Positions 28,387-52,257 of a stretch of 64,000 bases of DNA are shown one piece after another. The position numbers were made by a program, and so were the translations under genes. This DNA comes from an uncultured delta proteobacterium (GTDB taxonomy: Bacteria > Desulfobacterota > Desulfobacteria > Desulfobacterales > SpSt-501). Within the stretch, counting starts at the first letter, position 1. Each line of letters starts with the position of its first letter. A model generated the notes under the pieces. It worked only from the letters and a program-made list of their open reading frames with translations. It made no database searches and had not been told where the DNA came from. The stretch is taken from NCBI GenBank assembly GCA_963828345.1, contig CAWHEZ010000011.1, positions 3,615 through 67,614 on the forward strand, in the 5' to 3' direction.

Positions 28387-29772
28387 ATGAACCTCGCTGA
28401 TCGCACCATCCTGGTCGTGGGTCTCGCCCGCAGCGGCATCGCCGCGGCGCGCTTCCTCGCCCGTCGCGGGGCGAAGGTCCGCGCGACCGACCTGGCCCCG
28501 GCCGACCGCATCGGCCCGGCCGCGGCCGAGCTGCGCGCGCTCGGGGTCGAGCTGGAGCTGGGCGGCCACCGGCCCGAATCCTTCACCCGGGCGGAGCTGA
28601 TCGTGATCAGCCCGGGGGTGCCGCACCGCATGCCGCTGCTCGAGGCGGCGCGGGCGCACGGGGTGCCCGTGATCGGGGAGCTCGAGCTCGCCGCGCGCTT
28701 CATCGCCGAACCGATCGTGGGCGTGACCGGCACCAACGGCAAGACGACCGTGACCGAGCTGATCGGCGCCATGCTCGCCGCCTCGGGCCGCCGGGTCTTC
28801 GTGGGGGGCAACATCGGCACCCCCCTGATCGGGTACGTGGACGGCGCGGCGCCGGCGGAGGTGGTCGTGGCCGAGGTCAGCAGCTTCCAGCTCGACACGA
28901 TCGAGACGTTCCGGCCGCAGGTCGGGGTCCTGCTGAACATCACCGCCGACCACCTCGACCGCTATCCCGACTTCGACGCCTACGCCCGCTCGAAGCTGCG
29001 GCTGTTCGCCAACCAGCAGCCCGGGGACACGGCCGTCCTGAACGGCTCCGACCCGGCCGTCCGCGCCCGCGCCGGCGCCATCGCCGCCGGGATCCTGTAT
29101 TTCAACGCCCCCCGGGGCGACGGCGCCGCCCGGCTCGAGGGACGGGTGTTGCGGCTGCGTCTGCCCAACCGCGCCGAGTCCCGGCTCGACCTCGGCCGCT
29201 TCGGGCTGCGCGGTCCGCACAACCTGGAAAACGCGGCCGCGGCCGCCCTGGCGGCCCTCTCCGCCGGGGCCAGCCCGGACGGGGTCCAGGCCGCTCTGGA
29301 CGGCTTCGCGGCCGCCCCCCACCGCATGGAGACGGTCGCGACCGTCGGGGGCGTCGAGTACGTGAACGACTCCAAGGCCACCAACGTCGACGCCGTGCGC
29401 CGTGGGCTGGAAAGCTTCGCGCAGCCGGTGGTCCTCATCATGGGCGGGGTGGACAAGGGCGGCGACTTCCGCCTGCTCCGGGACGCGGCCCGCGCCCGCG
29501 GCAAGGCCCTGGTGCTGGTGGGCGGCGCCCGGGAGGCGATCCGCGCCGCGCTGGGAGGGATCCTGGCCGTGCACGAAGCGGCCGACATGGCGGAGGCCGT
29601 CAGGCGGGCCGCTGACCTCGCCGCCCCCGGCGACGTGGTGCTGCTCGCACCCGGGTGCGCCAGCTTCGATCGCTACGCGAACTACCAGGAACGCGGCGAG
29701 GACTTCCGCCGGGCGGTCGTCCGCCGGGCGGAGGCCGACGCCGCGACGACCGCCAAGGAGCCGACCCGGTGA
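28387..29772 (+). CDS. murD: UDP-MurNAc-L-Ala:D-Glu ligase
   Basis: GLARSG, ISPGVP, TGTNGKTT, EVSSFQL, DHLDRY, NDSKATN. Confidence 0.97.
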   Translation: MNLADRTILVVGLARSGIAAARFLARRGAKVRATDLAPADRIGPAAAELRALGVELELGGHRPESFTRAELIVISPGVPHRMPLLEAARAHGVPVIGELELAARFIAEPIVGVTGTNGKTTVTELIGAMLAASGRRVFVGGNIGTPLIGYVDGAAPAEVVVAEVSSFQLDTIETFRPQVGVLLNITADHLDRYPDFDAYARSKLRLFANQQPGDTAVLNGSDPAVRARAGAIAAGILYFNAPRGDGAARLEGRVLRLRLPNRAESRLDLGRFGLRGPHNLENAAAAALAALSAGASPDGVQAALDGFAAAPHRMETVATVGGVEYVNDSKATNVDAVRRGLESFAQPVVLIMGGVDKGGDFRLLRDAARARGKALVLVGGAREAIRAALGGILAVHEAADMAEAVRRAADLAAPGDVVLLAPGCASFDRYANYQERGEDFRRAVVRRAEADAATTAKEPTR

Positions 29773-30908
29773 TCACGACTCGAACCGCCGGAGCCCGTTC
29801 CGTCGCCACCGCCCAGGACGCGCAGCTCCTGTTCCCGGTCCTCTTTCTGGTCGGCATCGGGATCGTCATGGTCTACAGCGCGAGCTCGGCGATCGCCATG
29901 AAAAAGTTCGGTTCGGATTACTACTTCCTTAAAAAACAGGCGGTGTTCGCGGTGATCGGCATCTGCGCCCTGGTCGCCTGCCGGCACATCCCCTACACGG
30001 TCTACCGGCCGCTCGCCTACCCGCTGCTGGCGCTCTCCATCCTGCTGCTGGCCGCGGTGCTGTTCTCGCCCTTCGGGGTGACGGCCGGCGGGTCGAGCCG
30101 GTGGCTGCGCCTGGGCCCGATCCGGTTTCAGCCCTCTGAGTTCGCCCGCCTGGCGCTGATCGTCTACCTGGCCTACTCCATGGAGCGCAAGGCGGACCGG
30201 ATCGGCGAGTTCTCGATCGGTTTCCTGCCGCACGTGGTCGTGCTCGGCGTCCTGTCGGCCCTGGTCCTGAAGCAGCCCGACTTCGGGTCGGCCGCGATCC
30301 TGGCCTTCCTGACCTGGCTGATGATGTTCGTCGGCGGGGTGAAGCTGACCTACCTCTTGAGCTCGTGCGTGCTCGGAGTGGTGGCCGGCGCCTACGTCAT
30401 CACGCACGCCGGCTACCGGGCCCGGCGCCTCATGAGCTTCCTGGACCCCTGGCAGTACAGCTCGGACGCGGGCTACCAGATCGTGCACTCGCTCATGGCC
30501 TTCGGCAGCGGCGGGTGGTGGGGGGCGGGCATCGGCAATGGGGTGCAGAAGCTCTTCTACCTGCCCGAGCCGCACACCGACTTCATTTTCTCGGTGATCG
30601 GCGAGGAACTCGGGGTGGCGGGGGTGCTGCTGATCATCCTGCTCTACCTGCTGATCGTCTGGAAGGGGATCCGCATCGCACGCCACGCGCCGGACCTCTT
30701 CGGCTGCTTCCTGGCGGTCGGGCTCACGGCCGCGCTGGCGCTGCAGATCTGCATCAACATGGGGGTCACTCTGGGGCTTCTGCCCACCAAGGGGCTGACG
30801 CTCCCGTTCCTGAGCTACGGCGGCACGTCGCTGGTGTTGAACATGGCGACTGTCGGGATCCTGATGAACATCGCGGCCGCGGGCAAGACGGCCAGGGGGC
30901 TGGCATGA
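29769..30908 (+). CDS. ftsW: SEDS peptidoglycan polymerase FtsW
   Basis: MVYSAS, FQPSEF, QPDFG, LPEPHTDFIF, LPFLSYGG. Confidence 0.96.
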   Translation: MITTRTAGARSVATAQDAQLLFPVLFLVGIGIVMVYSASSAIAMKKFGSDYYFLKKQAVFAVIGICALVACRHIPYTVYRPLAYPLLALSILLLAAVLFSPFGVTAGGSSRWLRLGPIRFQPSEFARLALIVYLAYSMERKADRIGEFSIGFLPHVVVLGVLSALVLKQPDFGSAAILAFLTWLMMFVGGVKLTYLLSSCVLGVVAGAYVITHAGYRARRLMSFLDPWQYSSDAGYQIVHSLMAFGSGGWWGAGIGNGVQKLFYLPEPHTDFIFSVIGEELGVAGVLLIILLYLLIVWKGIRIARHAPDLFGCFLAVGLTAALALQICINMGVTLGLLPTKGLTLPFLSYGGTSLVLNMATVGILMNIAAAGKTARGLA

Positions 30909-32099
30909 GCGCGACCGGCACGATTCCCGGCCCGCCGTCGGCCGTTTCGACCCCACCGCCGCTGCGCGTGCTGGTCGCCGGCGGCGGCACGGGCGGTCAC
31001 CTCTTCCCGGGGATCGCCGTGGCGCAGGAGCTCCGGCGGCGCTGCCCGCGACACCGAGGTGCGCTTCGTCAGCCGCGGCAACGAGTTCGAGCGCTCCGCC
31101 CTGGCGCGCGCCGGCTTCCCCCTGACGGCCATTACCGTCGAGGGCTTCAAAGGCCGCGGGCTGTGGAACCAGCTGCGGATGCTGGCGAACCTCCCGCGCG
31201 GATTCGCGCAGTCGGTCGGGGTGCTGCGCGAGTTCCGGCCCGACCTGGTGATCGGGCTCGGCAGCTACGCGGCCGGGCCGGTCGTCCTGGCGGCCTGGAC
31301 GATGCGCATACCGATCGCCCTGTGCGAGCAGAACACGCTGCCCGGCATCACCAACCGGGCCCTCGCGCGCTTCGCGGACCGGATCTTCACCTCCTTCGAG
31401 CGCACGGCCGGCGGGTTCGACCCGCGCAAGGTGGTCTGGACCGGGAACCCCCTGCGCCGGGAGCTCCTGGCGGACGTGCCTCCCGCGGACGGCCGCCGCG
31501 CGGACCGCTTCACCGTGCTCGTGCTCGGCGGCAGCCAGGGGGCCCACCGCCTCAACACCGCCATGGCGGAGGCCCTGGAGCGGATGGAACGGCCGGAACG
31601 GTTCGCCTTCATCCACCAGACCGGTGCCGCGGACGAAGCCGTGGTCGCGGAGGCCTACCGCCGGGCGGGTGCGCGGGCGCGGGTGCAGGCGTTCTTCCAC
31701 GACATGGCCGAGCCCTACCGCGCGGCCGACCTCGTCGTCTGCCGCGCGGGGGCCACGACCGTGGCCGAAATCACCGCGCTCGGCAAGGCCGCCGTCTACG
31801 TGCCCTTCCCGTTCGCGGCCGACGACCACCAGCGCCTGAACGCCGGGCAGATGGTCGCGGCCGGCGCGGCCGAGATGATCGACGAGGCTGCGCTGACCGG
31901 GGAGGTGCTGGCCGAACGCATCCATTATTACGCCGGCCGCCCGGAGGTCCTCCGCCGGATGGCGGAGCGCTCCGCCGCCCTGGGGCGACCCGATGCAGCC
32001 GCGCGCATCGTGGACGAATGCTACCGCCTGGTTGCAGGTTGCGCACGCCGGGCGGCGGACCGGTCACCACACCAACGGGCCGACGGGCCGACGGGCTGA
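30905..32099 (+). CDS. murG: Lipid II GlcNAc transferase MurG (apparent frameshift near 31045)
   Basis: AGGGTGGHLFPG from ATG 30905; next frame EQN..PG, GNP, GGSQGA, RAGATT. Confidence 0.95.
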
Positions 32100-32105
32100 C
32101 GCACC

Positions 32106-33476
<1,371 letters not shown>

Positions 33477-33507
33477 GCGCCGCCATGGCGGCCCGCGGAG
33501 GGCGCCG

Positions 33508-34440
33508 ATGAGAGCCTTCGCCGCCAACCGCCGGTCGGCCCCGCGCCGCAACGTCAGCCGCCGCGCGGCGGCTGCCCGACGCCGGACGTGGGCCGGCCGC
33601 CTCGCGACCGGGCTCTGGGCCCTGGCCGGGGTGGCCGCCGTCGTGTTCGTGAGCTTTTTCTTCGTCTTCGTGCACGACATGTTCACCCAGAGCCCGCACT
33701 TCACCGCCCGGCAGATCCAGGTCGAGGGCGCCCGCCGCCTGCCGCCCCGCGCGGTGGCCGCGCAGGCCGGCGTGCACGAGGGCATCAACGTGCTCAGCGT
33801 CAACCTCTCGGCCGCCCGGCGGCGGCTGCTCACCCACCCGTGGATCGCAGAGGCCGAGGTCCGGCGGGAGATCCCGTCGGCCATCCACATCCGCGTGCGC
33901 GAGCACGTGCCGGCCGCCGTGGTGGACATGGGCAGGAAGTTCCTGCTGAACGAGCAGGGGGAGATTTTCAAGGAGTGGGAGCCGGCGGACCCCGCGGGCC
34001 TGCCGGTCGTCAGCGGCCTGAAGCCGGCCGACGTGCGGGTCGCGGACCGCTCCGGCGCGGCGGCCCTGCCGGTGGTGGCGGCGCTCGCGCCGGCCGCCCC
34101 GGCCGAGGCGCCCTTCAGCCGCCCGATGGACGCCGTGCTCCAGGTGCTGGCCCTCGGCCGCGAGACCACCGGCGTTCTCCCCGTGAAACAGATCGCGGCC
34201 ATCCGGGTCGACCGCGAGCTGGGCCTCACGGTGGTGGCCTACGATGACGCCAAATCCATCCGGCTGGGGTACGACGACTACCCCGCCAAGTACCGCCTGC
34301 TCACGGACCTCCTGGCCTTCTTCAAGGGCCAGCCCGGCATGGCGGCCGTGGCGCGCGTCGACCTGACCGACGCCGGCCGGGTGATCGTGAACCCCGTCCG
34401 GGCGGATCTACCGGCCAAGCCCGGACCCAAAGGAGGTTGA
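33508..34440 (+). CDS. ftsQ: Cell division protein FtsQ/DivIB
   Basis: Basic N-terminus, one TM helix, POTRA-like HPWIAEAEVRREIP..IRVREH; precedes ftsA. Confidence 0.9.
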   Translation: MRAFAANRRSAPRRNVSRRAAAARRRTWAGRLATGLWALAGVAAVVFVSFFFVFVHDMFTQSPHFTARQIQVEGARRLPPRAVAAQAGVHEGINVLSVNLSAARRRLLTHPWIAEAEVRREIPSAIHIRVREHVPAAVVDMGRKFLLNEQGEIFKEWEPADPAGLPVVSGLKPADVRVADRSGAAALPVVAALAPAAPAEAPFSRPMDAVLQVLALGRETTGVLPVKQIAAIRVDRELGLTVVAYDDAKSIRLGYDDYPAKYRLLTDLLAFFKGQPGMAAVARVDLTDAGRVIVNPVRADLPAKPGPKGG

Positions 34441-34446
34441 AACAGC

Positions 34447-35679
34447 ATGCAGCGCAAGGACGACATCGTGGTCGGCCTGGACATCGGCACCACCAAGATC
34501 TGTGCGGTGGTCGGCGAGGTGTCCGGCAGCTCGGTCAACATCATCGGCATCGGGACCCACCCCTCGGTCGGGCTGCGCAAGGGGGTCGTGGTCAACATCG
34601 AGGCGACCGTCGAGTCCATCAAGAAGGCCGTCGAGGAGGCCGAGCTCATGGCCGGCTGCGAGATCTCCTCGGTCTACACCGGGATCGCCGGCGGGCACAT
34701 CACCGGCTTCAACAGCCGCGGCATCGTGGCCATCAAGGGCCCGGAAATCACCCCGCTCGACGTGGAGCGCGTGATCGACGCCGCCCGGGCGGTGGCCATC
34801 CCGATGGACCGCGAGGTGATCCACGTGCTGCCGCAGGAGTACATCGTGGACGACCAGCCGGGCATCCAGAACCCGGTCGGCATGTCCGGCGTGCGGCTGG
34901 AGGCCAAGATCCACATCGTGACCGGCGCGGTCGCCTCCGCCCACAACCTGGTGAAGTGCGCCAACCGATCCGGGCTGGACGTCTGCGACATCGTGCTCGA
35001 GTGCCTGGCCTCCGGCGAGGCGGTGCTCACCGAGGAGGAGAAGCAGCTCGGCACGGCGCTGCTCGACCTGGGCGGCGGGACGACCGACCTGGCCGTCTTC
35101 TCGGGCAAAAACATCAAGCACACCTTCGTGCTCGCCCTCGGCGGGGACAACCTGACCAACGACATCGCCATCGGCCTGCGCTGCCCGCACCCCGAGGCCG
35201 AGAAGATCAAGAAGAAGTACGGCAGCTGCGTCGCGCGTCACATCCGCGCGGACGAGGCCATCGAGGTGCCGGGCGTGAGCGGGCGCGAGGCGCGCAAGCT
35301 CCCGCGCCAGATCCTGGGCGAGATCCTCGAGCCGCGCATGGAGGAGATCTTCGCGCTCGTCAACCGCGAGATCTACCGGGCCAACATGGAGAACATGGTC
35401 CCCTCCGGCATCGTCCTCACGGGGGGCACGGCCCTGCTCGAAGGGGTCACCGAGGTGGCCGAGTCGGTGTTCAGCCTGCCCGCGCGCATCGGGACGCCCC
35501 AGGGCATCAAGGGGCTGGTCGACGTCGTCAACAACCCGATGTACGCGACCGGCGTCGGCCTGGTGCTCTACGGGGCGCGCCACCAGGCCAAGGAGAAGCG
35601 GAAGTTCCGCATCCGCGACCGCAATATTTTCAACCGCCTCATCACGCGCATGCGGCGCTGGTTCAAGGACGTGGTGTAA
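34447..35679 (+). CDS. ftsA: Cell division protein FtsA
   Basis: GLDIGTTK, DLGGGTTD, VLTGG, YATGVGL, amphipathic C-terminal helix. Confidence 0.98.
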   Translation: MQRKDDIVVGLDIGTTKICAVVGEVSGSSVNIIGIGTHPSVGLRKGVVVNIEATVESIKKAVEEAELMAGCEISSVYTGIAGGHITGFNSRGIVAIKGPEITPLDVERVIDAARAVAIPMDREVIHVLPQEYIVDDQPGIQNPVGMSGVRLEAKIHIVTGAVASAHNLVKCANRSGLDVCDIVLECLASGEAVLTEEEKQLGTALLDLGGGTTDLAVFSGKNIKHTFVLALGGDNLTNDIAIGLRCPHPEAEKIKKKYGSCVARHIRADEAIEVPGVSGREARKLPRQILGEILEPRMEEIFALVNREIYRANMENMVPSGIVLTGGTALLEGVTEVAESVFSLPARIGTPQGIKGLVDVVNNPMYATGVGLVLYGARHQAKEKRKFRIRDRNIFNRLITRMRRWFKDVV

Positions 35680-35692
35680 GGACGTCGTTTGG

Positions 35693-35792
35693 TAAGTTTG
35701 AAGTTTTAGGTTTTAGGTCAGGACAAAGGACGTTGAACACGACGGAGGTCGATCGGCACGTCACTTAAAACTTAACACCAACACGCAACACG
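35693..35792. repeat. Intergenic palindrome of tandem heptamers (GTTTTAA/TTAAAAC type)
   Basis: taagttt-gaagttt-taggttt-taggtca ... cacttaa-aacttaa-caccaa-cacgcaa. Confidence 0.65.
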
Positions 35793-35816
35793 ATTTTAAA
35801 AACCGGCAGGAGGGCA

Positions 35817-39156: not shown

Positions 39157-41271
39157 ATGCTGGAAGGCATTCTGTTCATGACGGCCCTGGGCGCGGCCTG
39201 CGGCATCGTGCTCAGCATCGCGGCCCGGGTGTTCTACGTGTACGAGGACCCGCGCATCGCGCAGGTGGAAGCCTGCATGGCAGGCGCCAACTGCGGCGGG
39301 TGCGGCTTCGCCGGCTGCTCGGCCGCCGCCGCGGCCGTGGTGTTCGGCAAGGCCAAACCGAACGTGTGCGTGGTCGGCGGGCTCGAGTCCGCCCAGAACG
39401 CCGCCGCCGTCATGGGGGTGGAGGTGTCTGCGGCCGAGCCGCCGAAGTCGACCAACCCCTGCACCGGCGGGCTGCGCGCCGAGAACAAGTTCGTCTACCA
39501 GGGCATCCAGTCGTGCCGGGCCGAGGCGGCCCTCTTCAGCGGCCGGCGGGTGTGCGAGGTCGGCTGCATCGGGCACGGCGACTGCATCAACGCCTGCATG
39601 TTCGACGCGATCCGGATGGGCCCCGAGGGCTACCCGGTCATCGTCGAGGAGAAATGCGTCGGCTGCGGGGCCTGCGCCCGCGCCTGCCCCAAGGACCTGC
39701 TGAAGATCAGCACGCCCTCCGAGCGCCTGCTGCACTTCAACACGGCGCGCGACTGCCTCGCGCCCTGCCGCCAGACCTGCCCGGCCGAGATCGACATCCC
39801 GCAGTACATCCACCAGATCCGCACGGGCGACTACGCCGGCGCGGTCGCCACCATCCGCGAGCGCAACCCGCTGCTGCTCGCCTGCGGCCGCGTCTGCCCG
39901 CACCCCTGCGAGACCAACTGCCGGCGCGGTGCGGCCGACGAGCCGGTGTCCATCAACCAGCTCAAGCGGTTCGCCGCGGATTTCGAGATGACCTCCGGCC
40001 GGCGGCTGCCGGTGCGGGTGGCGCCGGACACCGGCAAGCGCGTCGCGGTCGTCGGCGGCGGCCCGGCCGGACTGACCTGCGCCTACTTCCTGCGCCGCCT
40101 GGGCCACGCGGTCACGATCTTCGAGGCCATGCCCAAGCTGGGCGGCATGCTGCGCTACGGCATCCCGGAGTACCGGCTGCCCAAGGCCGTCCTGGACTGG
40201 GAGATCGAGGGCATCCTGAACCTCGGGATCGAGGTCCGCACCGGGGCCCGCTTCGGCCGGGACATCGATCTCGAGCGCCTGCGCGGCGAGGGCTTCGACG
40301 CCGTCTTCCTCGGCGTCGGGGCCTGGAAGGACACCCGCCTCCAGGTGCCGGGCGAGGACGTGACCGGCTGCTACACCGGGATCGACTTCCTCTCGCGCCT
40401 GGCCTCCGGCGAGACGCTCGACATCCGCCCGACCGCGGCCGTGGTCGGCGGCGGGAACACCGCGATCGACTGCACGCGCAACCTCATCCGGCTCGGCGCC
40501 AAGGTCCACCTCGTCTACCGGCGCACGCGCAAGGAGATGCCCGCCAACGCCGTCGAGGTCGAGGCGGCCGAAGCCGAAGGCGCCGATTTCATGTTCCTGT
40601 ACGCCCCGGTTCAAGTCCTGGCCGACGCGCAGGGCCAGGTGACCCACCTCGAGGTCCTGCGCATGGAGCTGGGCGAGCCCGACGCGAGCGGCCGCCGACG
40701 GCCCGTTCCGGTCGCCGGTTCCGAAACCCGGCTGCCGGTCGACATGGTGATCTCGGCCATCGGCCAGGCCCCGGACGTCTCCTTCGCCGGCACGGGCGAG
40801 GGCGATCTCAAACATCTCAAGGTCAGCCGCTGGAGCACCGTCCAGGCCGACGCCGGCACGCTGCAGACCACCATCCCCTACCTCTTCGCCGCCGGCGACG
40901 CCGCCACCGGGCCCTCGCTCGTGGTCGACGCGATCGGAGGCGGCCGCCGCGCCGCGCGCTCGATCCACCAGTTCGTCACCGGCCAGCCCGTGACCGCGGC
41001 CGGCAACGAGCTCAACAAGACCCTGCTGACCGAGACCCTGTTCAAGAACGTCCGCGGGGTGATCCGACGGCCGCGGGCCGAGATGGTGGAGCTGCCGCCG
41101 GCCGAGCGCATCCGCTCCTTCGCGGAAGTCGACCAGGTGCTGACCGAGCAGGCCGCACGCGGCGAGAGCGACCGCTGCCTGTCCTGCTGCCTGTCCTGCT
41201 ACGACCCGGATGCGCCGCGGACGGCGTGCGAGGACGAGCCGGAGCATAGGGAAGCGCAGCCGGCAGCGTGA
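39157..41271 (+). CDS. rnfB: RnfB fused to a GltD/NfnB-like FAD- and NAD(P)-binding Fe-S oxidoreductase
   Basis: TM anchor, GANCGGCGFAGC and ferredoxin motifs (CVGCGACARACP); then PCRQTCP, CGRVCPHPCE, GGGPAG, GGMLRYGIP, GGGNTA..YRRT, FAAGD, RCLSC. Confidence 0.9.
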   Translation: MLEGILFMTALGAACGIVLSIAARVFYVYEDPRIAQVEACMAGANCGGCGFAGCSAAAAAVVFGKAKPNVCVVGGLESAQNAAAVMGVEVSAAEPPKSTNPCTGGLRAENKFVYQGIQSCRAEAALFSGRRVCEVGCIGHGDCINACMFDAIRMGPEGYPVIVEEKCVGCGACARACPKDLLKISTPSERLLHFNTARDCLAPCRQTCPAEIDIPQYIHQIRTGDYAGAVATIRERNPLLLACGRVCPHPCETNCRRGAADEPVSINQLKRFAADFEMTSGRRLPVRVAPDTGKRVAVVGGGPAGLTCAYFLRRLGHAVTIFEAMPKLGGMLRYGIPEYRLPKAVLDWEIEGILNLGIEVRTGARFGRDIDLERLRGEGFDAVFLGVGAWKDTRLQVPGEDVTGCYTGIDFLSRLASGETLDIRPTAAVVGGGNTAIDCTRNLIRLGAKVHLVYRRTRKEMPANAVEVEAAEAEGADFMFLYAPVQVLADAQGQVTHLEVLRMELGEPDASGRRRPVPVAGSETRLPVDMVISAIGQAPDVSFAGTGEGDLKHLKVSRWSTVQADAGTLQTTIPYLFAAGDAATGPSLVVDAIGGGRRAARSIHQFVTGQPVTAAGNELNKTLLTETLFKNVRGVIRRPRAEMVELPPAERIRSFAEVDQVLTEQAARGESDRCLSCCLSCYDPDAPRTACEDEPEHREAQPAA

Positions 41272-41359
41272 GAAATGAAGAAAAGGATTCAAGGGGTCAA
41301 GGGGGAAGACGATTCCGCGGCAACTTCATTTCACTCGACCCCTTGACCCCTCGGACCCC
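41272..41359. repeat. Intergenic palindrome of tandem octamers plus an overlapping 9-bp inverted repeat
   Basis: ggattcaa-ggggtcaa-ggggg ... ctcgaccc-cttgaccc-ctcggacc; gaaatgaag/cttcatttc. Confidence 0.65.
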
Positions 41360-41396
41360 GGCAGATCAAACGCAAAACTAGAGGAATGGGCTAACG

Positions 41397-41783
41397 ATGT
41401 TCTCCCGGCAAGAGCTGAAACTGGTCTACGGCGCGGTCGCGTGCCTGCTGCTGATCGCGGTGGTGAGCTACGCGGCTTTCCCCGCGCAGGCGCCCCGGCA
41501 GCCCAACCGCATCGCGTTCCAGAGCATCGCGGGCAAGGTGATGTTCTCCCACGACCGGCACCTGTCCGCGTCCGGGTACGCCCTGCTCTGCGACGAGTGC
41601 CACCACACCCTGGCCCCGACCGAGTTCGACCAGGCCGGGTCCTGCGTCGAATGCCACCCGGCCGGCGAGGGCGGGGACGACACCGTCAAGCGCGCGGACG
41701 CCTTCCACAAGCAGTGCGTCGACTGCCACCTGGGATACGGGGCGGGACCGATCGAATGCGCCCAGTGCCACATGATGCAATGA
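41397..41783 (+). CDS. Tetraheme cytochrome c (class III / c3-like) with N-terminal signal or membrane anchor
   Basis: Four CxxCH motifs (CDECHH, CVECH, CVDCH, CAQCH), plus FSHDRH and AFHKQC distal-His patterns. Confidence 0.92.
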   Translation: MFSRQELKLVYGAVACLLLIAVVSYAAFPAQAPRQPNRIAFQSIAGKVMFSHDRHLSASGYALLCDECHHTLAPTEFDQAGSCVECHPAGEGGDDTVKRADAFHKQCVDCHLGYGAGPIECAQCHMMQ

Positions 41784-41817
41784 GCCGGCGCGAGAGCGGC
41801 GAAGTGAGGATGGACGG

Positions 41818-43098
41818 ATGATGAAAAAATCGTTTCTGAGGTTCGGCACTCCCTGCCTGGATCACCCGCCCGCGCCCGCGGGAACCGGCCCGGCGGAGCG
41901 GATCCTGGCGGACGGCCCGGTGACCCTCCTGCACCCCCGCCCGGCCGAGGGCAAGGCCGTCCCGGCCGTGAAGGTCGGCGACCGGGTGAAGGCCGGGCAG
42001 CCGCTGGCGCTCTACGGCGGCCCCGACTACGTCACCGCCCCGCTCGGCGGGCGGGTCGCGGCGCTGCGGCCGGTGAGCGGCTCGTTCGGGCGCATGTCCA
42101 CCGCCGTCACCCTCGTCCACGAGGCCGACCCGACCTCCGACGAGGGGTTCGCCGCCGTGCGCAGCGCCCCGACGCTGGCGGGCGCCATGGCCTTCCTGGC
42201 GCAGCTCCCCGGCCGACCGGGTCTCGAGCGCCTGGCCGACCCGGACCGGCCCATCCGCACCCTCGTGGTCCATGCGGCCGACCCGGACCTGCTCGTCTAC
42301 ACGCACCAGCACGTGCTCGTCACCCGCATCCACGACGTCCGCAGCGGCATCCGGGTGCTGAAGCAGTTGACCGGGATCGAGGAGGTGATCATCCTCGCCC
42401 GCAGCGAAGTCATCCAGGGGCACGGCGAGCTCGGCGCGCACATCCGGACCGTCGACCACCGCTACCCGTCCGCCCTGCCCCCCCTCGTCATGGCGCGCCT
42501 CTTCGGCCGGATCGTCCCGGCCGGGCGGACCCCGGAGGATCTCGGGGTCTGCTTCATGAGCGCGGAAGCCGTGGCCTCGATCGGGGAGGCCTTCGACACG
42601 GGCCGGGTCCCGACGCTGAAGACGCTGACGGTGACCCCGCGGGACGGGCGTCCCCGCATGGTCGCGGTCCCGATCGGAACGCCGGTCGGCCGCATCCTCG
42701 CGCATTTCGGCGTGACGCCCGCGGAAGGCGACCGGGTCGTCCTGGGCGGGCCGATGCGCGGTGCCGCGGTGTACGCGCTCGATCACCCGGTCGAGCCGGA
42801 CACCGACGCCGTCCTCGTGCTGGACGCGGCGCGCGCCGCCGCGGTCTCGGACTACCCCTGCGTCAACTGCGGGGAGTGCGTGCGCGTCTGCCCGGCCCGC
42901 ATGCAGGTCAACCTGCTGGTGCGTTACCTGGAGGCCCAGAAGTACGAGGAGGCCGAGGAGGCCTACGACCTGCAGGCCTGCATCGAGTGCGGCCTGTGCA
43001 GCTACGTGTGTGTCGCGCACATCCCCATCGTCCAACACATCACTCTCGCCAAGCACGAACTGGCGCGCTTCCGCCGGGCGGAGGGAACCAATGGCTGA
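41818..43098 (+). CDS. rnfC: RnfC-like subunit with divergent flavin/NADH-binding region
   Basis: VKVGDRVKAGQ N-domain, YP..L, VPIGTP, GGPMRG, CVNCGECVRVCP, CIECGLCSYVC. Confidence 0.88.
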   Translation: MMKKSFLRFGTPCLDHPPAPAGTGPAERILADGPVTLLHPRPAEGKAVPAVKVGDRVKAGQPLALYGGPDYVTAPLGGRVAALRPVSGSFGRMSTAVTLVHEADPTSDEGFAAVRSAPTLAGAMAFLAQLPGRPGLERLADPDRPIRTLVVHAADPDLLVYTHQHVLVTRIHDVRSGIRVLKQLTGIEEVIILARSEVIQGHGELGAHIRTVDHRYPSALPPLVMARLFGRIVPAGRTPEDLGVCFMSAEAVASIGEAFDTGRVPTLKTLTVTPRDGRPRMVAVPIGTPVGRILAHFGVTPAEGDRVVLGGPMRGAAVYALDHPVEPDTDAVLVLDAARAAAVSDYPCVNCGECVRVCPARMQVNLLVRYLEAQKYEEAEEAYDLQACIECGLCSYVCVAHIPIVQHITLAKHELARFRRAEGTNG

Positions 43099-44050
43099 TC
43101 AGCAACGACTCGTGGTGTCCGCGGCACCCCACTGGCACATCGGCAGCCGGGTCACCGAGCGCAACCGGGATCTCGTCCTGGCGGCCCTGCCGGCCGCCCT
43201 GTTCGGCATCCACCAGTACGGGGCCCCGGCCCTCGGGGTGCTGGCGCTGTCGATCGCTTCGGCCGTGCTCTGGGAGCTCGCCTTCACGCGGGTGGCGGGG
43301 CGACCGGTGACGGTCGGCGACGGGTCGACCGTGGTGATCGGGCTGCTCTTCGGCATGATGCTGCCGGCGACCCTCCCCTGGTGGGCGGTCGTCACCGGCA
43401 CCTTCCTGGCCGTGGTGGTGGCCCGCCAGATCTACGGCGGCATCGGCGCCAACCCGTTCAACCCGGTCGCGGTGGCGGTGGCGATCCTCATGCTGGCCTG
43501 GAAGCAGCGCATGGACGTCGACACGGCGCTCGTCGCCTACGCCTTCGACTACCCGGCGGCCTTCCACCTGGCGGCCGTGAAGGCCTTCGGAACGGGCGCA
43601 ATCAAGGACCTCTCGCTCGCGGACCTCTTCCTCGGGCGGCAGGTCGGGACGATCGGGTCGGCCTTCGGCCCGGGGCTCGTCGCAGGCGGCGTCTACCTCA
43701 TCCTGCGGGGGACGATCCGCTGGGAGATCCCGCTCGCGTTCCTGGCCGGAGTGGCCGCGACCGCGACCGTCTTTCACCTGGCCGACCCCGCGCGCTACGC
43801 CCCCGCGGGCTTCCACCTCGTGACCGGCTTCACGCTGCTCGGTGCGTTCTTCCTCGCGACCGAGGACTCCTCCTCGCCCGTCAACGTCGTCCCCATGCTG
43901 ATCTACGGGGCCATCGGCGGTGCAGTGACCGTGTTCATCCGCACCATCGGGGTCTTCGCGGAAGGCCTGGTGTTCGCCATCCTGGTCGGCAACCTGCTGC
44001 AGCCCCTCCTGGACAAGATCCGTCCGAGGGCGCTCGGAAAGGTCGAGTGA
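43091..44050 (+). CDS. rnfD: RnfD-like membrane subunit lacking the FMN-Thr motif
   Basis: SAAPH, YGGIGANPFNP, DLFLG, IRWEIP, GAFFLATE, EGLVFAILVGN. Confidence 0.92.
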   Translation: MADQQRLVVSAAPHWHIGSRVTERNRDLVLAALPAALFGIHQYGAPALGVLALSIASAVLWELAFTRVAGRPVTVGDGSTVVIGLLFGMMLPATLPWWAVVTGTFLAVVVARQIYGGIGANPFNPVAVAVAILMLAWKQRMDVDTALVAYAFDYPAAFHLAAVKAFGTGAIKDLSLADLFLGRQVGTIGSAFGPGLVAGGVYLILRGTIRWEIPLAFLAGVAATATVFHLADPARYAPAGFHLVTGFTLLGAFFLATEDSSSPVNVVPMLIYGAIGGAVTVFIRTIGVFAEGLVFAILVGNLLQPLLDKIRPRALGKVE

Positions 44051-44053
44051 GCC

Positions 44054-44655
44054 ATGAGAGAGATCATTCGCATGATCGTGTTCCTGACCCTCATCAGCTT
44101 CGCCTCCGGCGGGCTTCTGGCGGCGCTGCGCGAAGGGACCCAGGAACGGATCGACCAGCAGGTGCTGGAATACGTGAAGGGCCCGCTCGATCCGCACCGT
44201 GTTCGCGGGCGCCTCCAATGACCCGGTCGCCACCCGCTTCCAACTCAGCGACGGGGACAAGGCGCGCACCTTCTTCGTCGGGGTCCTGGACGGCGAGGCC
44301 AGCGCGGGGTCGCGCTTCGAAGCGGTCGTCGCCCAAGGGCTACAAGGGCGACGTCGGCCTCATGGTGGCGATTGACGTCAAGACCGACAAGCTGATCGGC
44401 GTCGACGTGACCACCCACAACGAAACCCCGGGACTCGGCGCCAAGGCCAAGACGGACCCGAAGTTCGCCGCCCAGTTCAAGGGGCTGCCGGCGTCCGGGC
44501 CGGTCAAGGTCACCCAGGACGGAGGCTCGATCAACGCCATCAGCGGCGCCACCATCACCTCGCGCGCCGTGTGCGACGCGGTCACCGTTGCCGCCGGGGC
44601 GTACGAGAAGCTCAAGCCGCAGATCGCGGACAAACTGAAAGACGTCAAGAAGTGA
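44054..44655 (+). CDS. rnfG: RnfG FMN-binding subunit (frameshifts ~44190-44335)
   Basis: N-terminal TM helix, GYKGDV, HNETPGLG, AISGATITS. Confidence 0.9.
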
Positions 44656-44667
44656 CGAACGGGGAAC

Positions 44668-44767
44668 GTGTTAAGTTTCAAGTGTTAGGTTTTAAGTGGT
44701 TGAGCCGGCCCGAGACGATACTGCAGATGTCTCTTTTTCTTAAAACTTAAAACTTTGAACTTAAAAC
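44668..44767. repeat. Intergenic palindrome of tandem heptamers (GTTTTAA/TTAAAAC type)
   Basis: gtgttaa-gtttcaa-gtgttag-gttttaa-gtggttg ... ttaaaac-ttaaaac-tttgaac-ttaaaac. Confidence 0.8.
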
Positions 44768-44790
44768 CGCTTCTGCATTAAGGATAGAAA

Positions 44791-45398
44791 ATGGCCAGAA
44801 CCATCACCCAGGAATTCACGAAGGGCCTCTGGGCCGAGATCCCCCCCTTCCGCCTGGTGCTCGGGCTCTGCCCCACCTGGCGATCACCAACACGGTCGAG
44901 AACGCCTACGGGATGGGGATCGCGGTGACCTTCGTGCTCACCTTTTCGAACATCCTGATCTCGGCTGCTGCGCAAGGTCATCCCGCCCAAGGTGCGCATC
45001 GTCGCCTTCATCGTCGTCATCGCCACCTTCGTGTGCGTGGTCGAACTCGTGATGCAGGCCTACACCTACGGGCTGTTCATGAAGCTCGGGCATCTACATC
45101 CCGCTCATCGTCGTGAACTGCATCCCGATGGGACGGGCCGAGGCATTCGCGAGCCGCTACAGGGTCGTCCGTTCGACGCTGGACGGGCTGGGCTGGGGAT
45201 CGGCTACACGCTCGTCGCTGACGACGCTCGCCTTCTTCCGCGAGAGTGATCGCCACCGGCGCGATCACCTTCTATGAAACGCCGCTCGCCGTGTTCGGCG
45301 CCGCGTTCGAGCCCTTCAAGTTCCTCGTGGAGGCCCCGGGCGCCTTCGTCTGTTTAGGCCTGATGCTGGGAGTGATGAACATCCTGGGGAAAAAGTAG
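44791..45398 (+). CDS. rnfE: RnfE membrane subunit (several frameshifts)
   Basis: LVLGLCPT, IPPKVRIVAFIVVIATFV, IPLIVVNCI..GRAE, APGAFVCLG across frames. Confidence 0.88.
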
Positions 45399-45407
45399 GA
45401 GACTGCC

Positions 45408-45987
45408 ATGTTCGGCGACCTGTTCACCCTGTTCTTCAGCTGTGTTCTGATCAACAACATCCTGCTGATCCAGTACCTCGGGAACTGCCCGTTCCTGGGC
45501 ACCTCCAAGAAGATGGAGACGGCGGTCGGGATGGCCATGGCGGTGGTGTTCGTGCTGGTGCTGGCGGGGATCATTACCTGGCTGGTGGAGTGGTACGTGC
45601 TGGCGCCCTTCGACCTGCGCTACCTGCGGACGATCGCCTTCATCCTGGTCATCGCCGCCCTGGTGCAGTTCGTGGAAATGTTCCTCAAGAAAAGCATCCC
45701 CGCGCTGTACACGGGGCTGGGCATCTTCCTGCCCCTCATCACCACCAACTGCGCGGTCCTCGGTGTGTGCCTGATCAACATCGGCAAGGAACTACACGTT
45801 CATCCAGATGCTCGTGTCCTCGTTCGCCTACCCCGTCGGCTTCGGCCTGGCGCTGGTCCTCTTCGCGGGCGTGCGCGAGCGCATCCTGCTCGCCCGCACC
45901 CCGAAGCCCTTCCAGGACACGGCGATCGGCCTGGTCACGGCCGGCATGCTGTCGCTATCCTTCTTCGCCTTTAAAGGGTGGATGTAA
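45408..45987 (+). CDS. rnfA: RnfA membrane subunit (frameshift near 45790)
   Basis: NNILLIQYLGNCPFLG, LVQFVEM, LGIFLPLITTNCAVLG, FAGVRERI. Confidence 0.93.
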
Positions 45988-45994
45988 GAAACGG

Positions 45995-46071
45995 GCGTCC
46001 AGGGTTCGGGGTTCAGGAAAAAAAGCCGCCCGGGTGTTGTTTTCTCCTCCTGAACCCTGAACCCCGAACCC
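45995..46071. repeat. Palindrome of tandem heptamers (GGGTTCA/TGAACCC) between convergent rnfA and rluD-like genes
   Basis: gcgtcca-gggttcg-gggttca ... tgaaccc-tgaaccc-cgaaccc. Confidence 0.75.
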
Positions 46072-47016
46072 TACGTTTCTGAACCGCCCTCCCCTCCCAG
46101 CTCCCGCAGCACTCCCCAGCATATCCTCCGGCAGCGGCGACTCGAAGCTCATCCGCTCGCCGGTGCGCGGGTGGTCGAGCTCGAGCCGCAGGGCGTGCAG
46201 CATCTGCCGCCGCAGCCCCCGGCGCTCACCGCCCCGGTCGCGACCGTAGACCGGGTCTCCGAGAATCGGATGACCGACGGCGGCGCAGTGCACCCGGATC
46301 TGGTGCGTGCGCCCGGTGCGCAGCCGCAGCTCGAGCAGCGTGACCTCGCCCAGCACGTGCCTCACCCGCCACTCGGTTTCGGCCCCCCGCCCCCTGCGGC
46401 TCACGGTCGACATGCGCTTGCGGTCCACGGGATGGCGGCCGATCGCCAGGCGCACGACGCCGCTCGGCGCGGGCATCTGCCCGTGGACGAGCGCGAGGTA
46501 GACCTTGCCGACCGTGCGGCGCTTGAACTGGGCGGCGAGGTGCTCCAGGGCGGCGGCCGTCTTGGCCACCACGAGGGTCCCGGTCGTGTCCTTGTCCAGC
46601 CGGTGGACGATCCCCGGACGGAGTTCGGCGCCGATGCCGGTCAGATCCGGGCAGTGGTAGAGCAGGGCGTTGACGAGCGTTCCGGAGCGATGCCCCGGGG
46701 CGGGGTGGACCACGAGCCCGGCGGGCTTGTTGACCACGATGATGTCGGCGTCTTCGTAAAGAATGGACAGAGGGATGGGTTCAGGTTGGAACCCGCAGGG
46801 CTGAGGGGCCGGAAGCCGTCCGGAAACGACGTCACCCGCCTTGAGGCGGTAGCTCGGTTTCCGAGCCTGTCCGTTGACCTTGAACCGCTCGGTCGTTATG
46901 AGGTGAACGGCCAACGAACGCGAACAGTCGGGCAGACGTTCTGCAATAAAGACATCTAAACGGATGCCGCGGCAAGCGGCATCCGCAGGGAGGGAGAAGG
47001 CGTCACCGCAGCCCAT
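46071..47016 (-). CDS. rluD: RluA-family pseudouridine synthase (RluD-like); probable C-terminal indel
   Basis: S4 domain RLDVFI, NKPAGLVVHP, HRLDKDTTG, TGRTHQIRVH. Confidence 0.9.
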
Positions 47017-47035: not shown

Positions 47036-47584
47036 TCAGGCGGCTTCGTGGGAGAACAGGGACTCGATCTCGAGGATGATGGTCTTCTCGTCGGTCTTCT
47101 TGGCCTTCGAGAGTTCCTTGACCAGCAGCACCTGGGCGGTGTCGTAGAGCTTGCGTTCGCCGAACGACAGGTCCTTGGTCAGCTTGAGGCGGAAAAGGTC
47201 GCGAAACACTTCGGCGACGTCGTAGAGCGAGCCGGTCTTGATCTTTTCCATGTATTCGCGGTAGCGCCGGTTCCAGGTCTGATTGTCGGCCAGGACCTCT
47301 CGCTTGGTTTTCATCACCGCGTAAACCTTTGGAATTTCCTTCACATCGATCAGGCAGCGCAACCCCACCGAGTCCACGTTGCGGATGGGGATCATGATGA
47401 CCATGCCGTTTTCGAGCACCTTGAGGATGTAGAAATCGTGCTGCTCGCCGTTGACCACGCGGGTCTCGACGGCCTGGATCTGCCCCACGCCGTGGGCGGG
47501 ATAAACGGCGAGATCGCCGACCCGGAATTTGCGGGATTTCGAGTTCGTCGGCCGCGCGGTTTCTTTTGGAGTCTTCCCAGCCAT
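47036..47584 (-). CDS. carD: CarD/CdnL-family RNA polymerase-binding regulator
   Basis: FRVGDLAVYPAHGVG, TWNRRYR, LSFGERK. Confidence 0.93.
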   Translation of the reverse strand: MAGKTPKETARPTNSKSRKFRVGDLAVYPAHGVGQIQAVETRVVNGEQHDFYILKVLENGMVIMIPIRNVDSVGLRCLIDVKEIPKVYAVMKTKREVLADNQTWNRRYREYMEKIKTGSLYDVAEVFRDLFRLKLTKDLSFGERKLYDTAQVLLVKELSKAKKTDEKTIILEIESLFSHEAA

Positions 47585-47663
47585 ATGCTTCACTTGTCCT
47601 ACGTACTGCGGATTCGGCTCATTTAGTTGAAATTCTTTATCATATCCGGCGAGTTTCTACAAT

Positions 47664-47722: not shown

Positions 47723-49759
47723 CTACAGCAGGAACGGAACCAGCAGCAGGGCCACCACGTTCAGGATCTTGATCATGGGGTTGACGGCGGGACCGGCGGT
47801 GTCTTTGTACGGGTCGCCGACAGTGTCGCCGGTGACGGCCGCCTTGTGAGTGTCGCTGCCCTTGCCGCCGAAGTGCCCGTCTTCAACATATTTCTTCGCA
47901 TTGTCCCAGGCGGCTCCGCCCGTGGTCATCGAAATGGCCACGAACACGCCGGTGACGATGCTGCCGATCAGCAGGCCGCCCAGGGCGATCTTGCCGAGCA
48001 GCAACCCGACGACGATCGGGGTGACGACCGGCAGCAGGGCCGGGATCATCATCTCCTTCAGCGCGAACTTGGTGACGATGTCCACGCAGGCGGCGTAATC
48101 CGGCTTGCCGGTGCCTTCCATGATCCCCGGGATTTCACGGAACTGCCGACGCACTTCCTCGACCACCGCGCCGCCGGCCTTGCCGACCGCCATCATGGCG
48201 ATGGAGGCGAACAGGTAGGGCAGCAGGCCGCCGATGAAGAGGCCGATGATGACGTTCACGTCGCTCAGGTCAAACCGCAACTCCACCCCGCTGCCGAGCA
48301 GAGCGAACTCCTGCGTGTAGGCGGCGAACAGCACCAGGGCGGCCAGACCGGCGGAGCCGATGGCATAGCCCTTGGTGACGGCCTTGGTGGTGTTGCCGAC
48401 CGCATCCAGGGGGTCGGTGACGGCGCGGACGCTTTCTTCCATCTCGGCCATCTCGGCGATGCCGCCGGCGTTGTCCGTGATCGGGCCGTAGGCGTCGATC
48501 GCGATGACCATGCCGGTCATGGAAAGCATGGACATGGCCGCCATGGCGATGCCGTAGAGACCGGCGAAATAATGGGCCATCCCGATGGCCAGGCAGATGA
48601 CGAGCACCGGCGCCGCGGTGGACTGCATGCTGACGGCGAGACCGGCGATGATGTTGGTGCCGTGGCCGGTGGTGGACGCCTGCGCGATCCCCTTCACGGG
48701 GCCGTACTTGCCGGTGTAGTACTCGGTGATGATGACGATCACGACCGTCAGGATGAGCCCCACCAGCGTGGACAGGTAGATGTTCATGCTGGAGATCTGC
48801 TTGCCGCCGACCAGGGTCAGAGTCGGCATCAGGTTCTGGATGGCGAAGAAGAAGACGATGGCCGCGATGATGGCGCTGCCGAACATGCCCTTGTAAAGGG
48901 CGCCCATGATGTACTCGTTTTTGCCCAGGCGCACGAAGAACACGCCGATGATGGAGGCGACGATGGAAATGGCGCCCAGCACCAGCGGGAACTCGGTCGC
49001 GATGAGATTTTTCGGGAACAGCAGGTTGCCGAGCAGCATCGCGGCCACCGCGGTCACGGCGTAGGTCTCGAACAGGTCGGCCGCCATGCCGGCGCAGTCG
49101 CCGACGTTGTCGCCCACGTTGTCGGCGATGACCGCCGGGTTGCGCGGGTCGTCTTCGGGAATCCCGGCCTCAACCTTGCCGACCAGGTCCGCGCCGACGT
49201 CCGCACCCTTGGTGAAGATGCCGCCGCCCAGCCGCGCGAAGATCGAAATCAGGCTGCCGCCGAAGCCCAGCGCCACCAGGGCGACCACCGCGTCGCGGGT
49301 GGAAATCCCCATGTGGAGCAGAATGGCGTAATACCCGGCCACGGCCGTCAGCGCCAGGCCGGCGACGATCATGCCGGTGACCGAGCCGCCGCGGAACGCC
49401 AGCTGCAGGGCCGCATTCAGGCCTTTGCGGGCCGCTTCGGAGACGCGCACGTTGGCGATGACCGACACCCGCATGCCGATGTAGCCTGCCAGGTAGGACG
49501 CCACGGCCCCGACCAGGAAGCCGATCGCCGTCGTCAGCTTCATGGTGACGGCGATGATGATGAAAATGATGATTCCGGTAATGCTGACGCTTTTCAGCTG
49601 GCGGTTCAGATAGGCGATGGCGCCTTCTGCAATCGCGCCGGAGATCTGCTGCATCCGCTCGTTTCCGGCCGGAGCGCTCTTGACCATGCCGGCCACGATG
49701 ATGGCGTAGAGCACGCCGGCAACACCCACTAATGTGCACACCAACGGTAGATAGTTCAT
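47723..49759 (-). CDS. hppA: Membrane-bound ion-translocating pyrophosphatase, K+-independent H+-PPase signature
   Basis: [29 protein letters not shown] (Lys variant), [10 protein letters not shown]. Confidence 0.96.
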
Positions 49760-52182: not shown

Positions 52183-52257
52183 TGGCTGGGGCGGGAGGAT
52201 TCGAACCTCCGAGTGCAGGAACCAAAGTCCTGTGTCTTACCGCTTGACGACGCCCCA
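52183..52257 (-). tRNA. tRNA-Gln (anticodon TTG)
   Basis: Minus strand TGGGGCGTCGTCAAGCGGTAAGACACAGGAC-TTTGG-TTCCTG...GGTTCGAATCC...CGCCCCAGCCA; cloverleaf with encoded CCA; usual ispE-tRNA-Gln-prs synteny. Confidence 0.95.

Follow-up and report, generated by a model that had tools for sequence, protein, structure and literature searches.

The DNA stretch analyzed here (the window; 64,000 nucleotides of an uncultured delta proteobacterium of the Desulfobacterales) carries seven + strand genes at positions 39157-45987 that encode an RnfB::flavoprotein fusion, a cytochrome c, RnfC, RnfD, RnfG, RnfE and RnfA, in this order (Table 1). All six Rnf subunits (A, B, C, D, E and G) are co-encoded, and this is the sole Rnf/Nqr cluster of the source genome. 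An earlier sequence-only reading of the same DNA had proposed this gene order, which was confirmed from the sequence and from the Pfam and NCBIfam matches that identified every subunit. RnfD, RnfG, RnfE and RnfA scored above the cut-offs of the TIGR rnf models; RnfC scored below its own. In the assembly, rnfG, rnfE and rnfA are broken by frame changes. Judged by its domain content, the locus is an Rnf2 or Desulfobacula toluolica Tol2-type complex of Desulfobacterales, i.e., an already known entity and not a new one.

Table 1. Features of the rnf region. Positions are those of the window; aa, amino acids; paired values are model score vs cut-off; L018 is the corresponding locus of a close relative.
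Feature	Position	Strand	Details
RnfB::NfnB/GltD-like NAD(P)H flavoprotein	39157..41271	+	704 aa; Pfam FeS, Fer4_7, Fer4_20, Pyr_redox_2
Tetrahaem class III cytochrome c, N-terminal hydrophobic anchor or signal	41397..41783	+	128 aa; 4 CxxCH
RnfC homologue without NADH/FMN motifs, two [4Fe-4S] motifs kept	41818..43098	+	426 aa
RnfD homologue without flavinylated Thr	43091..44050	+	319 aa; PF03116, E 8.2e-85
rnfG, spread over three frames, SGAT present	44054..44655	+	intact L018 product: NF045876 RnfG_DVU2794, 227.7 vs 205
AT-rich spacer between rnfG and rnfE, 135 bp	44656..44790		29-nt inverted repeat of 14-nt tandem units
rnfE, six single-base indels, GLCP and VNC present	44791..45398	+	intact L018 product: TIGR01948, 217 vs 213.4
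rnfA, one extra base at 45792, GNCP and TNC present	45408..45987	+	intact L018 product: TIGR01943, 248.8 vs 229.3

The RnfB fusion has an N-terminal membrane helix, after which come the Fe-S domain of RnfB, a ferredoxin domain of the 2x[4Fe-4S] kind, a two-cluster domain of GltD type and Rossmann domains for flavin adenine dinucleotide (FAD) and NAD(P)H; its C-terminal tail carries CxxCCxxC. The rnfB model TIGR01944 scored 76.4 against a cut-off of 68.7, Fer4_20 (81.9 bits) and Pyr_redox_2 (101.2 bits) also exceeded their cut-offs, and NF009410 stayed slightly below (507.1 vs 516). Comparison with PDB entries assigned residues 4-190 to RnfB chains and residues 190-680 to NfnB-like modules (E 8.7e-132 to 5.6e-93). 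For the latter part, NfnB-like NADPH modules (9bov, 9n5u, 8oh5) ranked first, followed by NfnB (5jca, 4ylf) and then GltD. Twenty-four Cys residues are invariant among seven orthologues, including those of the C-terminal CxxCCxxC and four sets that fit five [4Fe-4S] clusters. Residues 190-680 share the two-cluster, FAD and NAD(P)H domains with the NfnB/GltD NADPH modules (5jca, 4ylf, 2vdc, and the fused 9bov, 9n5u and 8oh5), from which the module differs in being joined to a membrane-anchored RnfB and in having no NfnA or GltB partner encoded nearby. The sequence VYRRT after the second GGGNTAID motif presumably resembles that of NADPH-binding relatives, a feature bearing on specificity for NADPH or NADH.

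RnfC has lost its catalytic module while retaining its clusters. When aligned with the solved chains 9eri_C, 7zc6_C and 8ahx_C, window RnfC has ADPD at the ECEP site and lacks a counterpart of the GGAxFP stretch, whereas both 4Fe-4S motifs align with those of the RnfC proteins of A. woodii, C. tetanomorphum and A. vinelandii. Model TIGR01945 scored 179.5, failing its cut-off of 245.95, Complex1_51K also remained below cut-off (28.6 vs 31.2), and no SLBB match was among those listed. In RnfD, the ATPL motif is replaced by AFHL, with F158 aligned to T156 of the A. woodii protein. According to PMC11889175, this threonine bears the flavin mononucleotide of RnfD (FMN-D), and N123 and D249 are riboflavin ligands. 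Window RnfD has N124 and Glu at the ligand positions, so that a non-covalent flavin may still be held; TIGR01946 just passed (208.0 vs 207.05). The pattern extends to the operons that we collected with the fusion as anchor: either RnfC NADH/FMN motif occurs in 0 of 52, and a canonical Thr/Ser at the RnfD FMN site in 0 of 51, where the residue is Y (37), A (7), H (4), F (2) or D (1). The loss of RnfC GxGGAGFP and ECEP and of the RnfD FMN-threonine, as claimed in the sequence-only reading, was thus upheld by alignment with the solved chains. Together with the composition of the fusion, these comparisons show that the NAD(P)H site has been relocated from RnfC to the NfnB/GltD-like flavoprotein fused to RnfB.

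The ligands of the membrane-crossing part are canonical, both for the 2Fe-2S cluster of RnfA/E and for the covalent FMN of RnfG. The RnfG SGAT motif, the Cys motifs of RnfA and RnfE and the RnfB Cys residues are all present in the window. Among orthologues, RnfE (48 sequences) and RnfA (52 sequences) retain the Cys columns except in two truncated rows, and SGAT occurs in most of 50 RnfG sequences, one listed variant having GGAT. The earlier statement that the B-A/E-G half keeps its cofactor ligands was correct as to the motifs; rnfG, rnfE and rnfA are not open in the window, and the cited motifs lie in separate frame pieces.

The product of the cytochrome gene matches Pfam Cytochrom_CIII (E 4.6e-12), and its top NCBIfam match is the TmcA-type acidic tetrahaem c3 family, at 66.6 bits and below the cut-off of 114. 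All haem Cys and His residues are invariant among 42 orthologues, as are P36 and R38 after the hydrophobic segment. The source genome has eight class III cytochrome matches and one ApbE. Structure prediction of a complex of the RnfG periplasmic domain, the cytochrome and four haems, using 42-row alignments, gave 0.00 in two runs, a result that weighs neither way.

The Rnf2 type is documented at the level of domains and proteomes. A distinct Rnf type in D. toluolica Tol2 is described in PMC5109826, citing Wohlbrand et al. 2016 (Proteomics 16:973), with an RnfB of about 700 aa that has NAD-binding sites and an RnfC without the NADH module; its mode of action awaits verification according to that source. 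The same paper reports that D. multivorans makes both Rnf1 and Rnf2 and that a cytochrome is encoded in its rnf2 cluster. PMC11887813 places Rnf2 in the core genome of Desulfobacteraceae and reports it as abundant and constitutively formed in six strains. The question raised by the earlier reading, i.e., whether this subtype had been characterized, can therefore be answered in the affirmative for domains and proteomes (PMC5109826, PMC11887813), not for biochemistry. The window shares with this type a large RnfB (about 700 aa) that includes an NAD(P)-binding flavoprotein, the RnfC without NADH module, the small cytochrome c gene and the order rnfCDGEA, and differs in that the large rnfB lies before the cytochrome gene, not after rnfA. 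Loss of the RnfD threonine in Rnf2-type complexes was not stated in the literature searched, which covered articles without their supplements. A 2025 review of RNF and NQR (PMC12174285) does not contain the terms 'Desulfo' or 'sulfate'. PMC11434368 mentions an 'FAD-dependent oxidoreductase' in place of rnfB in many Desulfovibrionaceae and recruitment of a cytochrome to Rnf.

Comparison with other known systems places the locus among relatives that share some of its features. Canonical Rnf (9eri, 7zc6, 8ahx) has the same six subunits, the RnfA/E Cys residues, the RnfG SGAT, the two 4Fe-4S motifs of RnfC and the N-terminal Fe-S and ferredoxin domains of RnfB; the window locus differs by lacking the RnfC NADH/FMN motifs and the flavinylated RnfD threonine, and by the added NAD(P)H flavoprotein and cytochrome c. 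The Rnf of M. acetivorans with MmcA (PMC4023990) also has a cytochrome c gene before rnfC, co-transcribed in that organism, and uses no NAD via RnfC; RnfG has been proposed to pass electrons to the cytochrome. It differs in its small, ferredoxin-facing RnfB and its larger multihaem MmcA, and all NCBIfam rnfX_Methano models scored far below their cut-offs here (e.g., rnfC_Methano, 97.2 vs 650). The Desulfovibrio-type dhcA-rnfCDGEAB(F) cluster (PMC4841214, PMC4215793) likewise has a cytochrome c3-family gene before rnfC, and the RnfG encoded here matches RnfG_DVU2794. In D. alaskensis, vesicle assays for ferredoxin:NAD+ activity failed (PMC4841214). In Na+-NQR, the core is homologous (NqrB-E corresponding to RnfD, G, E and A), and NqrA, the RnfC homologue, has lost NADH function, with NADH entering via the recruited flavoprotein NqrF. 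Na+-NQR differs in the absence of Fe-S clusters from NqrA, the covalent FMN retained by NqrB and the use of a quinone as acceptor, and RnfB and cytochrome are lacking. No NqrF-like gene was found in the cluster, and the nqrA-E models scored far below their cut-offs.

The fusion operon is widespread. Of 24 genomes of the same genus, 15 have a fusion orthologue of at least 79% identity, which in one case is split in two, and 11 of 16 genomes of other families of the order have an orthologue of 56-69% identity. Those in Desulfosarcina, Desulfobacula, Desulfonema and related metagenome-assembled genomes (MAGs) are 61-72% identical, and Desulfosarcina alkanivorans PL12 has the same cluster with a fusion of 65% identity. 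A scan of species genomes gave at least 559 relatives of the fusion, of which the best 80 all belong to Desulfobacterales or Desulfatiglandales MAGs and isolates, D. alkanivorans PL12 among them. Gene order was counted in these best 80 loci. An Rnf cluster accompanies the fusion in 61 of them, in the order cyt-C-D-G-E-A-B (41 loci), in the order B-cyt-C-D-G-E-A as in the window (14 loci), or with a contig end before the ...A-B part (6 loci); in the remaining 19, the flanking sequence that was fetched, short in some cases, contains no rnf gene. A cytochrome gene is present in 55 of 55 fusion-anchored clusters with their upstream end on the contig. With the same architecture seen in dozens of genomes, chance can be set aside. 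The position of the large rnfB ahead of the cytochrome gene is a clade-specific rearrangement.

As controls, we searched 301 genomes of the phylum with RnfD and found a match in 122. Of 154 matches outside the window's genome (149 listed), 100 loci were hand-picked down the list and fetched; those skipped were mostly from genera already represented or the weakest rows. A cytochrome was scored as an open reading frame (ORF) with at least three CxxCH motifs on the strand of rnfD and no more than 4 kb from it, and the RnfC motifs were scored by the regular expressions ECEP and G.GG[AS].FP. The loci fell into two groups. Both RnfC motifs were found in 45 loci, all of which have Thr or Ser at the RnfD site and none a cytochrome or a large RnfB. 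The other 55 have neither motif, and none has just one. All 34 cytochrome loci belong to the motif-less group, as do all 22 loci with a large RnfB, 14 of which have a cytochrome, and all 12 that combine a four- or ten-haem cytochrome with a small RnfB. At the RnfD site, the cytochrome loci have Y (12), P (7), S (6), D (3), E (2), N (2), A (1) or F (1), i.e., Thr/Ser is missing in 28 of 34.

When the traits were placed on a 108-row tree of RnfD, the cytochrome required at least four changes, the RnfD site five, the RnfC module three and the large RnfB three. The RnfD of a relative, 98% identical to that of the window, falls in a starred 23-row clade of loci with cytochrome and large RnfB. With three to five changes on the tree, correlated evolution cannot be tested, and the pattern is clean yet largely inherited. 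The co-occurrence of losses and gains claimed earlier thus stands across the 100 loci, while as an evolutionary association it amounts to three to five events. When compared at the same divergence of RnfA (mean identity about 0.62-0.63), RnfC sequences had an identity of 0.33 in the class with cytochrome and large RnfB and of 0.52 in the canonical class; the corresponding values were 0.47 and 0.54 for RnfD, 0.69 and 0.58 for RnfE, and 0.43 and 0.41 for RnfG, all from non-independent pairs. RnfC is thus under less constraint in this class and evolves faster than in canonical Rnf.

The sampled loci also included arrangements that differ from that of the window. A second kind of large-RnfB cluster, in the order C-D-G-E-A-B without a cytochrome gene, encodes a fusion of 40-44% identity (L131, L132, L137, L149, also L141 and L143) and has Pro at the RnfD FMN site. 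Several genomes of the same genus, that of the window not included, have it in addition to the cytochrome type. A third large-RnfB clade without cytochrome (L155, L171, L172, L176) lacks the RnfC NADH motifs and keeps the RnfD Thr in three of four members; it is a candidate for a ferredoxin:NAD(P)+ loop with swapped ends. Clusters with cytochrome and small RnfB, tetrahaem in L124-L130, L133 and L135 and decahaem in L125, L128 and L142, are also without the RnfD Thr. Their motif losses are hard to reconcile with the usual annotation as ferredoxin:NAD+ oxidoreductase. Having an RnfB of 268-321 aa, a tetra- or decahaem cytochrome and no fused module, these loci were matched to the Desulfovibrio type by architecture only.

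The preferred interpretation, to which we give an even chance, is that the cluster encodes a membrane complex, probably ion-coupled, through which electrons of NAD(P)H cross to a cytochrome in the periplasm. NAD(P)H would reduce the FAD of the module fused to RnfB, from which electrons would travel via RnfB's five [4Fe-4S] clusters to that of RnfA/E. Electrons and Na+ or H+ would then cross the membrane together via RnfA/E to the FMN of RnfG on the periplasmic side, and the electrons would go on via the anchored tetrahaem cytochrome into the pool of periplasmic cytochrome c3 from which Qrc, Tmc and Dsr are fed. Flow in the opposite direction is also possible. The RnfC clusters and the probable riboflavin site of RnfD would form a return branch that still exchanges electrons with some cytoplasmic partner. 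Entry at RnfB is proposed because the Cys ligands follow one another in an unbroken series and because NfnB-like NADPH modules are the nearest relatives of the FAD and NAD(P)H domains. Exit in the periplasm is proposed because all 34 cytochrome loci lack the RnfC module, because the cytochrome is TmcA-like, and because there is a precedent in M. acetivorans, where electrons are transferred from RnfG to cytochrome c and NAD is not involved (PMC4023990). Coupling of ion and electron movement has its model in A. woodii, where PMC11889175 describes a path through RnfA/E shared by Na+ and the electron, RnfD only transferring electrons.

Several observations weigh against such a route to the cytochrome, in particular against one that ignores RnfC and RnfD. 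The two CxxCxxCxxxC motifs are present in 151 of 151 RnfC sequences examined. At the riboflavin site of RnfD, the class with cytochrome and large RnfB has an acidic residue in 64 of 65 sequences and Asn in 50 of 65 (both are kept in 45 of 45 canonical sequences). A one-way route bypassing both subunits is therefore unlikely, and the earlier suggestion that C and D are mainly structural is doubtful. A cytochrome is missing from the surrounding 4 kb in eight of the 22 large-RnfB loci, from which it follows that the fusion does not require a cytochrome, and six of the 34 cytochrome loci have Ser at the RnfD site. An independent-pairs comparison on the RnfD tree gave only 1-4 pairs, the associations resting on the few events mentioned above. 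The literature adds that Rnf2 is drawn by the Rabus group as connecting the NADH pool with that of ferredoxin (PMC11887813) and that, in D. alaskensis, a species with the related small-RnfB type, the rnf phenotype is not shared by dhcA mutants (PMC4215793). No enzyme assay of Rnf2 was found in the literature searched, again without supplements.

Some of these points lead to a second arrangement, which we regard as possible rather than probable: a ferredoxin:NAD(P)+ oxidoreductase with its ends swapped, in which the full U-shaped loop is used, NAD(P)H reacts at the RnfB fusion, ferredoxin or another cytoplasmic Fe-S protein docks at the RnfC clusters, electrons pass RnfD by way of a non-covalent flavin, and the cytochrome is a side port or accessory. 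This reading, or one with RnfC as a third port, stays alive because of the retained RnfC clusters and riboflavin-site residues, the cytochrome-free large-RnfB clusters (three of the eight with the RnfD Thr) and the D. alaskensis genetics, in which dhcA is dispensable. The link between NADH and ferredoxin pools drawn in PMC11887813 agrees with it. On the other hand, no fusion-anchored RnfD has Thr or Ser at the FMN site; in A. woodii, FMN-D bridges FMN-G and riboflavin (PMC11889175). RnfC is the least conserved subunit of the class, and the cytochrome gene is present in every fusion-anchored cluster with its upstream end on the contig.

A different objection to the proposed NAD(P)H:cytochrome route is that the complex might not be made at all in the source organism. 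None of rnfG, rnfE and rnfA is an open reading frame in the window, since rnfG runs through three frames, rnfE has six frame changes and rnfA one. The sequence-only reading, sound in its motif observations, had been silent on these breaks. A relative (genome G013, loci L018 and L026) that is 97-98% identical over the locus has intact rnfG (198 aa), rnfE (201 aa) and rnfA (192 aa). Compared with L018, the window has 12 single-base indels between 44185 and 45792: five extra bases in rnfG (44185, 44303, 44305, 44317 and 44323), six indels in rnfE (44877, 44967, 45091, 45190, 45214 and 45247) and one in rnfA. The rnfB, cytochrome, rnfC and rnfD genes are intact, with zero net frame change relative to this genome.

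We consider it probable that the breaks in rnfG, rnfE and rnfA are consensus errors rather than decay. In contigs from four runs of four studies, the window's extra bases at 44185, 45091 and 45792 are missing in all four runs, and in the three runs that cover these places the extra bases at 44303 and 44305 are missing and the base that the window lacks near 45189-45190 is present. One contig spanning rnfE shows six gaps, and two spanning rnfG show five. Substitutions in rnfG, rnfE and rnfA affect 32 codons synonymously and 14 non-synonymously, similar to 51 and 19 in rnfB, rnfC and rnfD. Furthermore, positions 1-6600 of L026 differ from 29221-35800 of the window by more than 200 single-base indels over the mur/fts cell-division genes, and in this region (29.2-35.8 kb) the window ORFs are open and those of the sister assembly fragmented. 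The window being open where the sister is fragmented, and vice versa, local clusters of consensus errors are indicated in both assemblies. The assembly-error reading is preferred because of these observations together: the indels are missing from a 98% relative and from contigs of four studies, the substitution pattern is like that of the intact neighbours, and the sister assembly has indel clusters elsewhere that are typical of consensus errors.

Real decay of the operon, with rnfG, rnfE and rnfA as true pseudogenes, is in our judgment unlikely. In its favor are the concentration of 12 frame-breaking indels within 1.6 kb and the fact that no other Rnf/Nqr cluster exists in the genome. At 44317, 44323 and 45214, just some of the covering contigs lack the window's base. 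The largest share of the sequence words of 43900-46100 in any public run was 0.42, and the exact sequence of the window was found in no run; for these reasons, decay in this strain keeps some likelihood. Against decay stand the intact rnfB, rnfC, rnfD and cytochrome genes, as well as the report of Rnf2 as a core and constitutively made complex in cultured relatives (PMC11887813).

Two further readings of the electron path are much weaker. We give little credence to a three-port bifurcating or confurcating machine, in which the NfnB-like FAD of the fusion would split NADPH electrons, some going to a low-potential acceptor in the cytoplasm (ferredoxin) and some across the membrane to the cytochrome. 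Among solved structures, the fused module is nearest to NfnB-like modules of bifurcating enzymes (e.g., 9n5u 'NfnA', 8oh5 and 5jca NfnI), and the fusion, the RnfC clusters and the cytochrome are candidate ports; an NfnA-like second flavin partner is, however, not encoded in the cluster, and GltD-type modules also serve as simple linear input wires for NADPH. An ordinary ferredoxin:NAD+ Rnf with NADH and FMN bound in a divergent RnfC pocket is very improbable, since RnfC, although alignable over its full length to solved RnfC chains (E 1.6e-35), lacks both motifs in 52 of 52 orthologues and stays below the TIGR01945 and Complex1_51K cut-offs, and since an RnfC without the NADH module is also described in PMC5109826.

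The sampled loci allow the proposed NAD(P)H:cytochrome route to be considered for a wider group. The 55 of 100 loci without the RnfC NADH site include the form with cytochrome and small RnfB, and most of them also lack the covalent-FMN site of RnfD. We tentatively propose, as a doubtful but possible generalization, that the RnfC NADH site was given up in a large 'Rnf' branch of Desulfobacterota, in which a half-loop wires electrons via RnfA/E and RnfG to cytochrome c. In that case, complexes with large RnfB would be NAD(P)H:cytochrome c and those with small RnfB ferredoxin:cytochrome c oxidoreductases, Na+ or H+ would move with the electron, and the RnfC clusters would serve as a third, cytoplasmic port. 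Because the NADH site that annotation assumes is missing in more than half of the sampled loci, the textbook ferredoxin:NAD+ reading is questioned there, and the motif survey suggests that it does not apply to them.

Such a function would matter for sulfate reduction. The cytochrome-dependent membrane complexes of Desulfobacteraceae lack an obvious electron donor, as noted in PMC5109826 and PMC11887813. If NAD(P)H electrons indeed reach periplasmic cytochromes, this gap would be closed, and if the half-loop holds, the missing donor for the cytochrome-dependent Qrc, Tmc and Dsr would be found in sulfate reducers that do not use hydrogen. Desulfobacteraceae, with Rnf2 in their core genome, perform much of marine sulfate reduction, and the 'Rnf' genes in metabolic models of sulfate reducers would then have to be read differently.

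Some further variants were seen among the loci. In one same-order genome, L120 (G029:C90) has cyt-C-D-G-E-A followed by a separate GltD-like gene of 467 aa without the RnfB part, and L022 (G029:C26) has a full RnfB fusion on another contig; the pair may represent a split or intermediate form. Within the canonical RnfD clade, L187, L188, L190, L191 and L194 have the order G-E-A-B-C-D and an RnfC with EFEP (FELC in L187) and no GGAxFP, and another variant (L180, L197, L205) has AAEPF or SGEPF in RnfC. Both variants keep the RnfD ATPL and have no cytochrome.

Around the genes themselves, Rfam and tRNA scans of the window gave nothing in the rnf region and a single match elsewhere, tRNA-Gln at 52183-52257. 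Parts of the repeat in the rnfG-rnfE spacer recur as 12 further partial matches on six other contigs of the same genome, and because of this recurrence the spacer element seems to be a small dispersed palindromic repeat inserted in the operon. The rnfG-rnfE gap is about 10 bp in more distant orthologous clusters, e.g., L019. Just downstream, on the - strand, lie two genes that we tentatively take, from their translated sequences only, to encode a CarD-like regulator (47036-47593) and a membrane pyrophosphatase of 678 aa (47723-49759).

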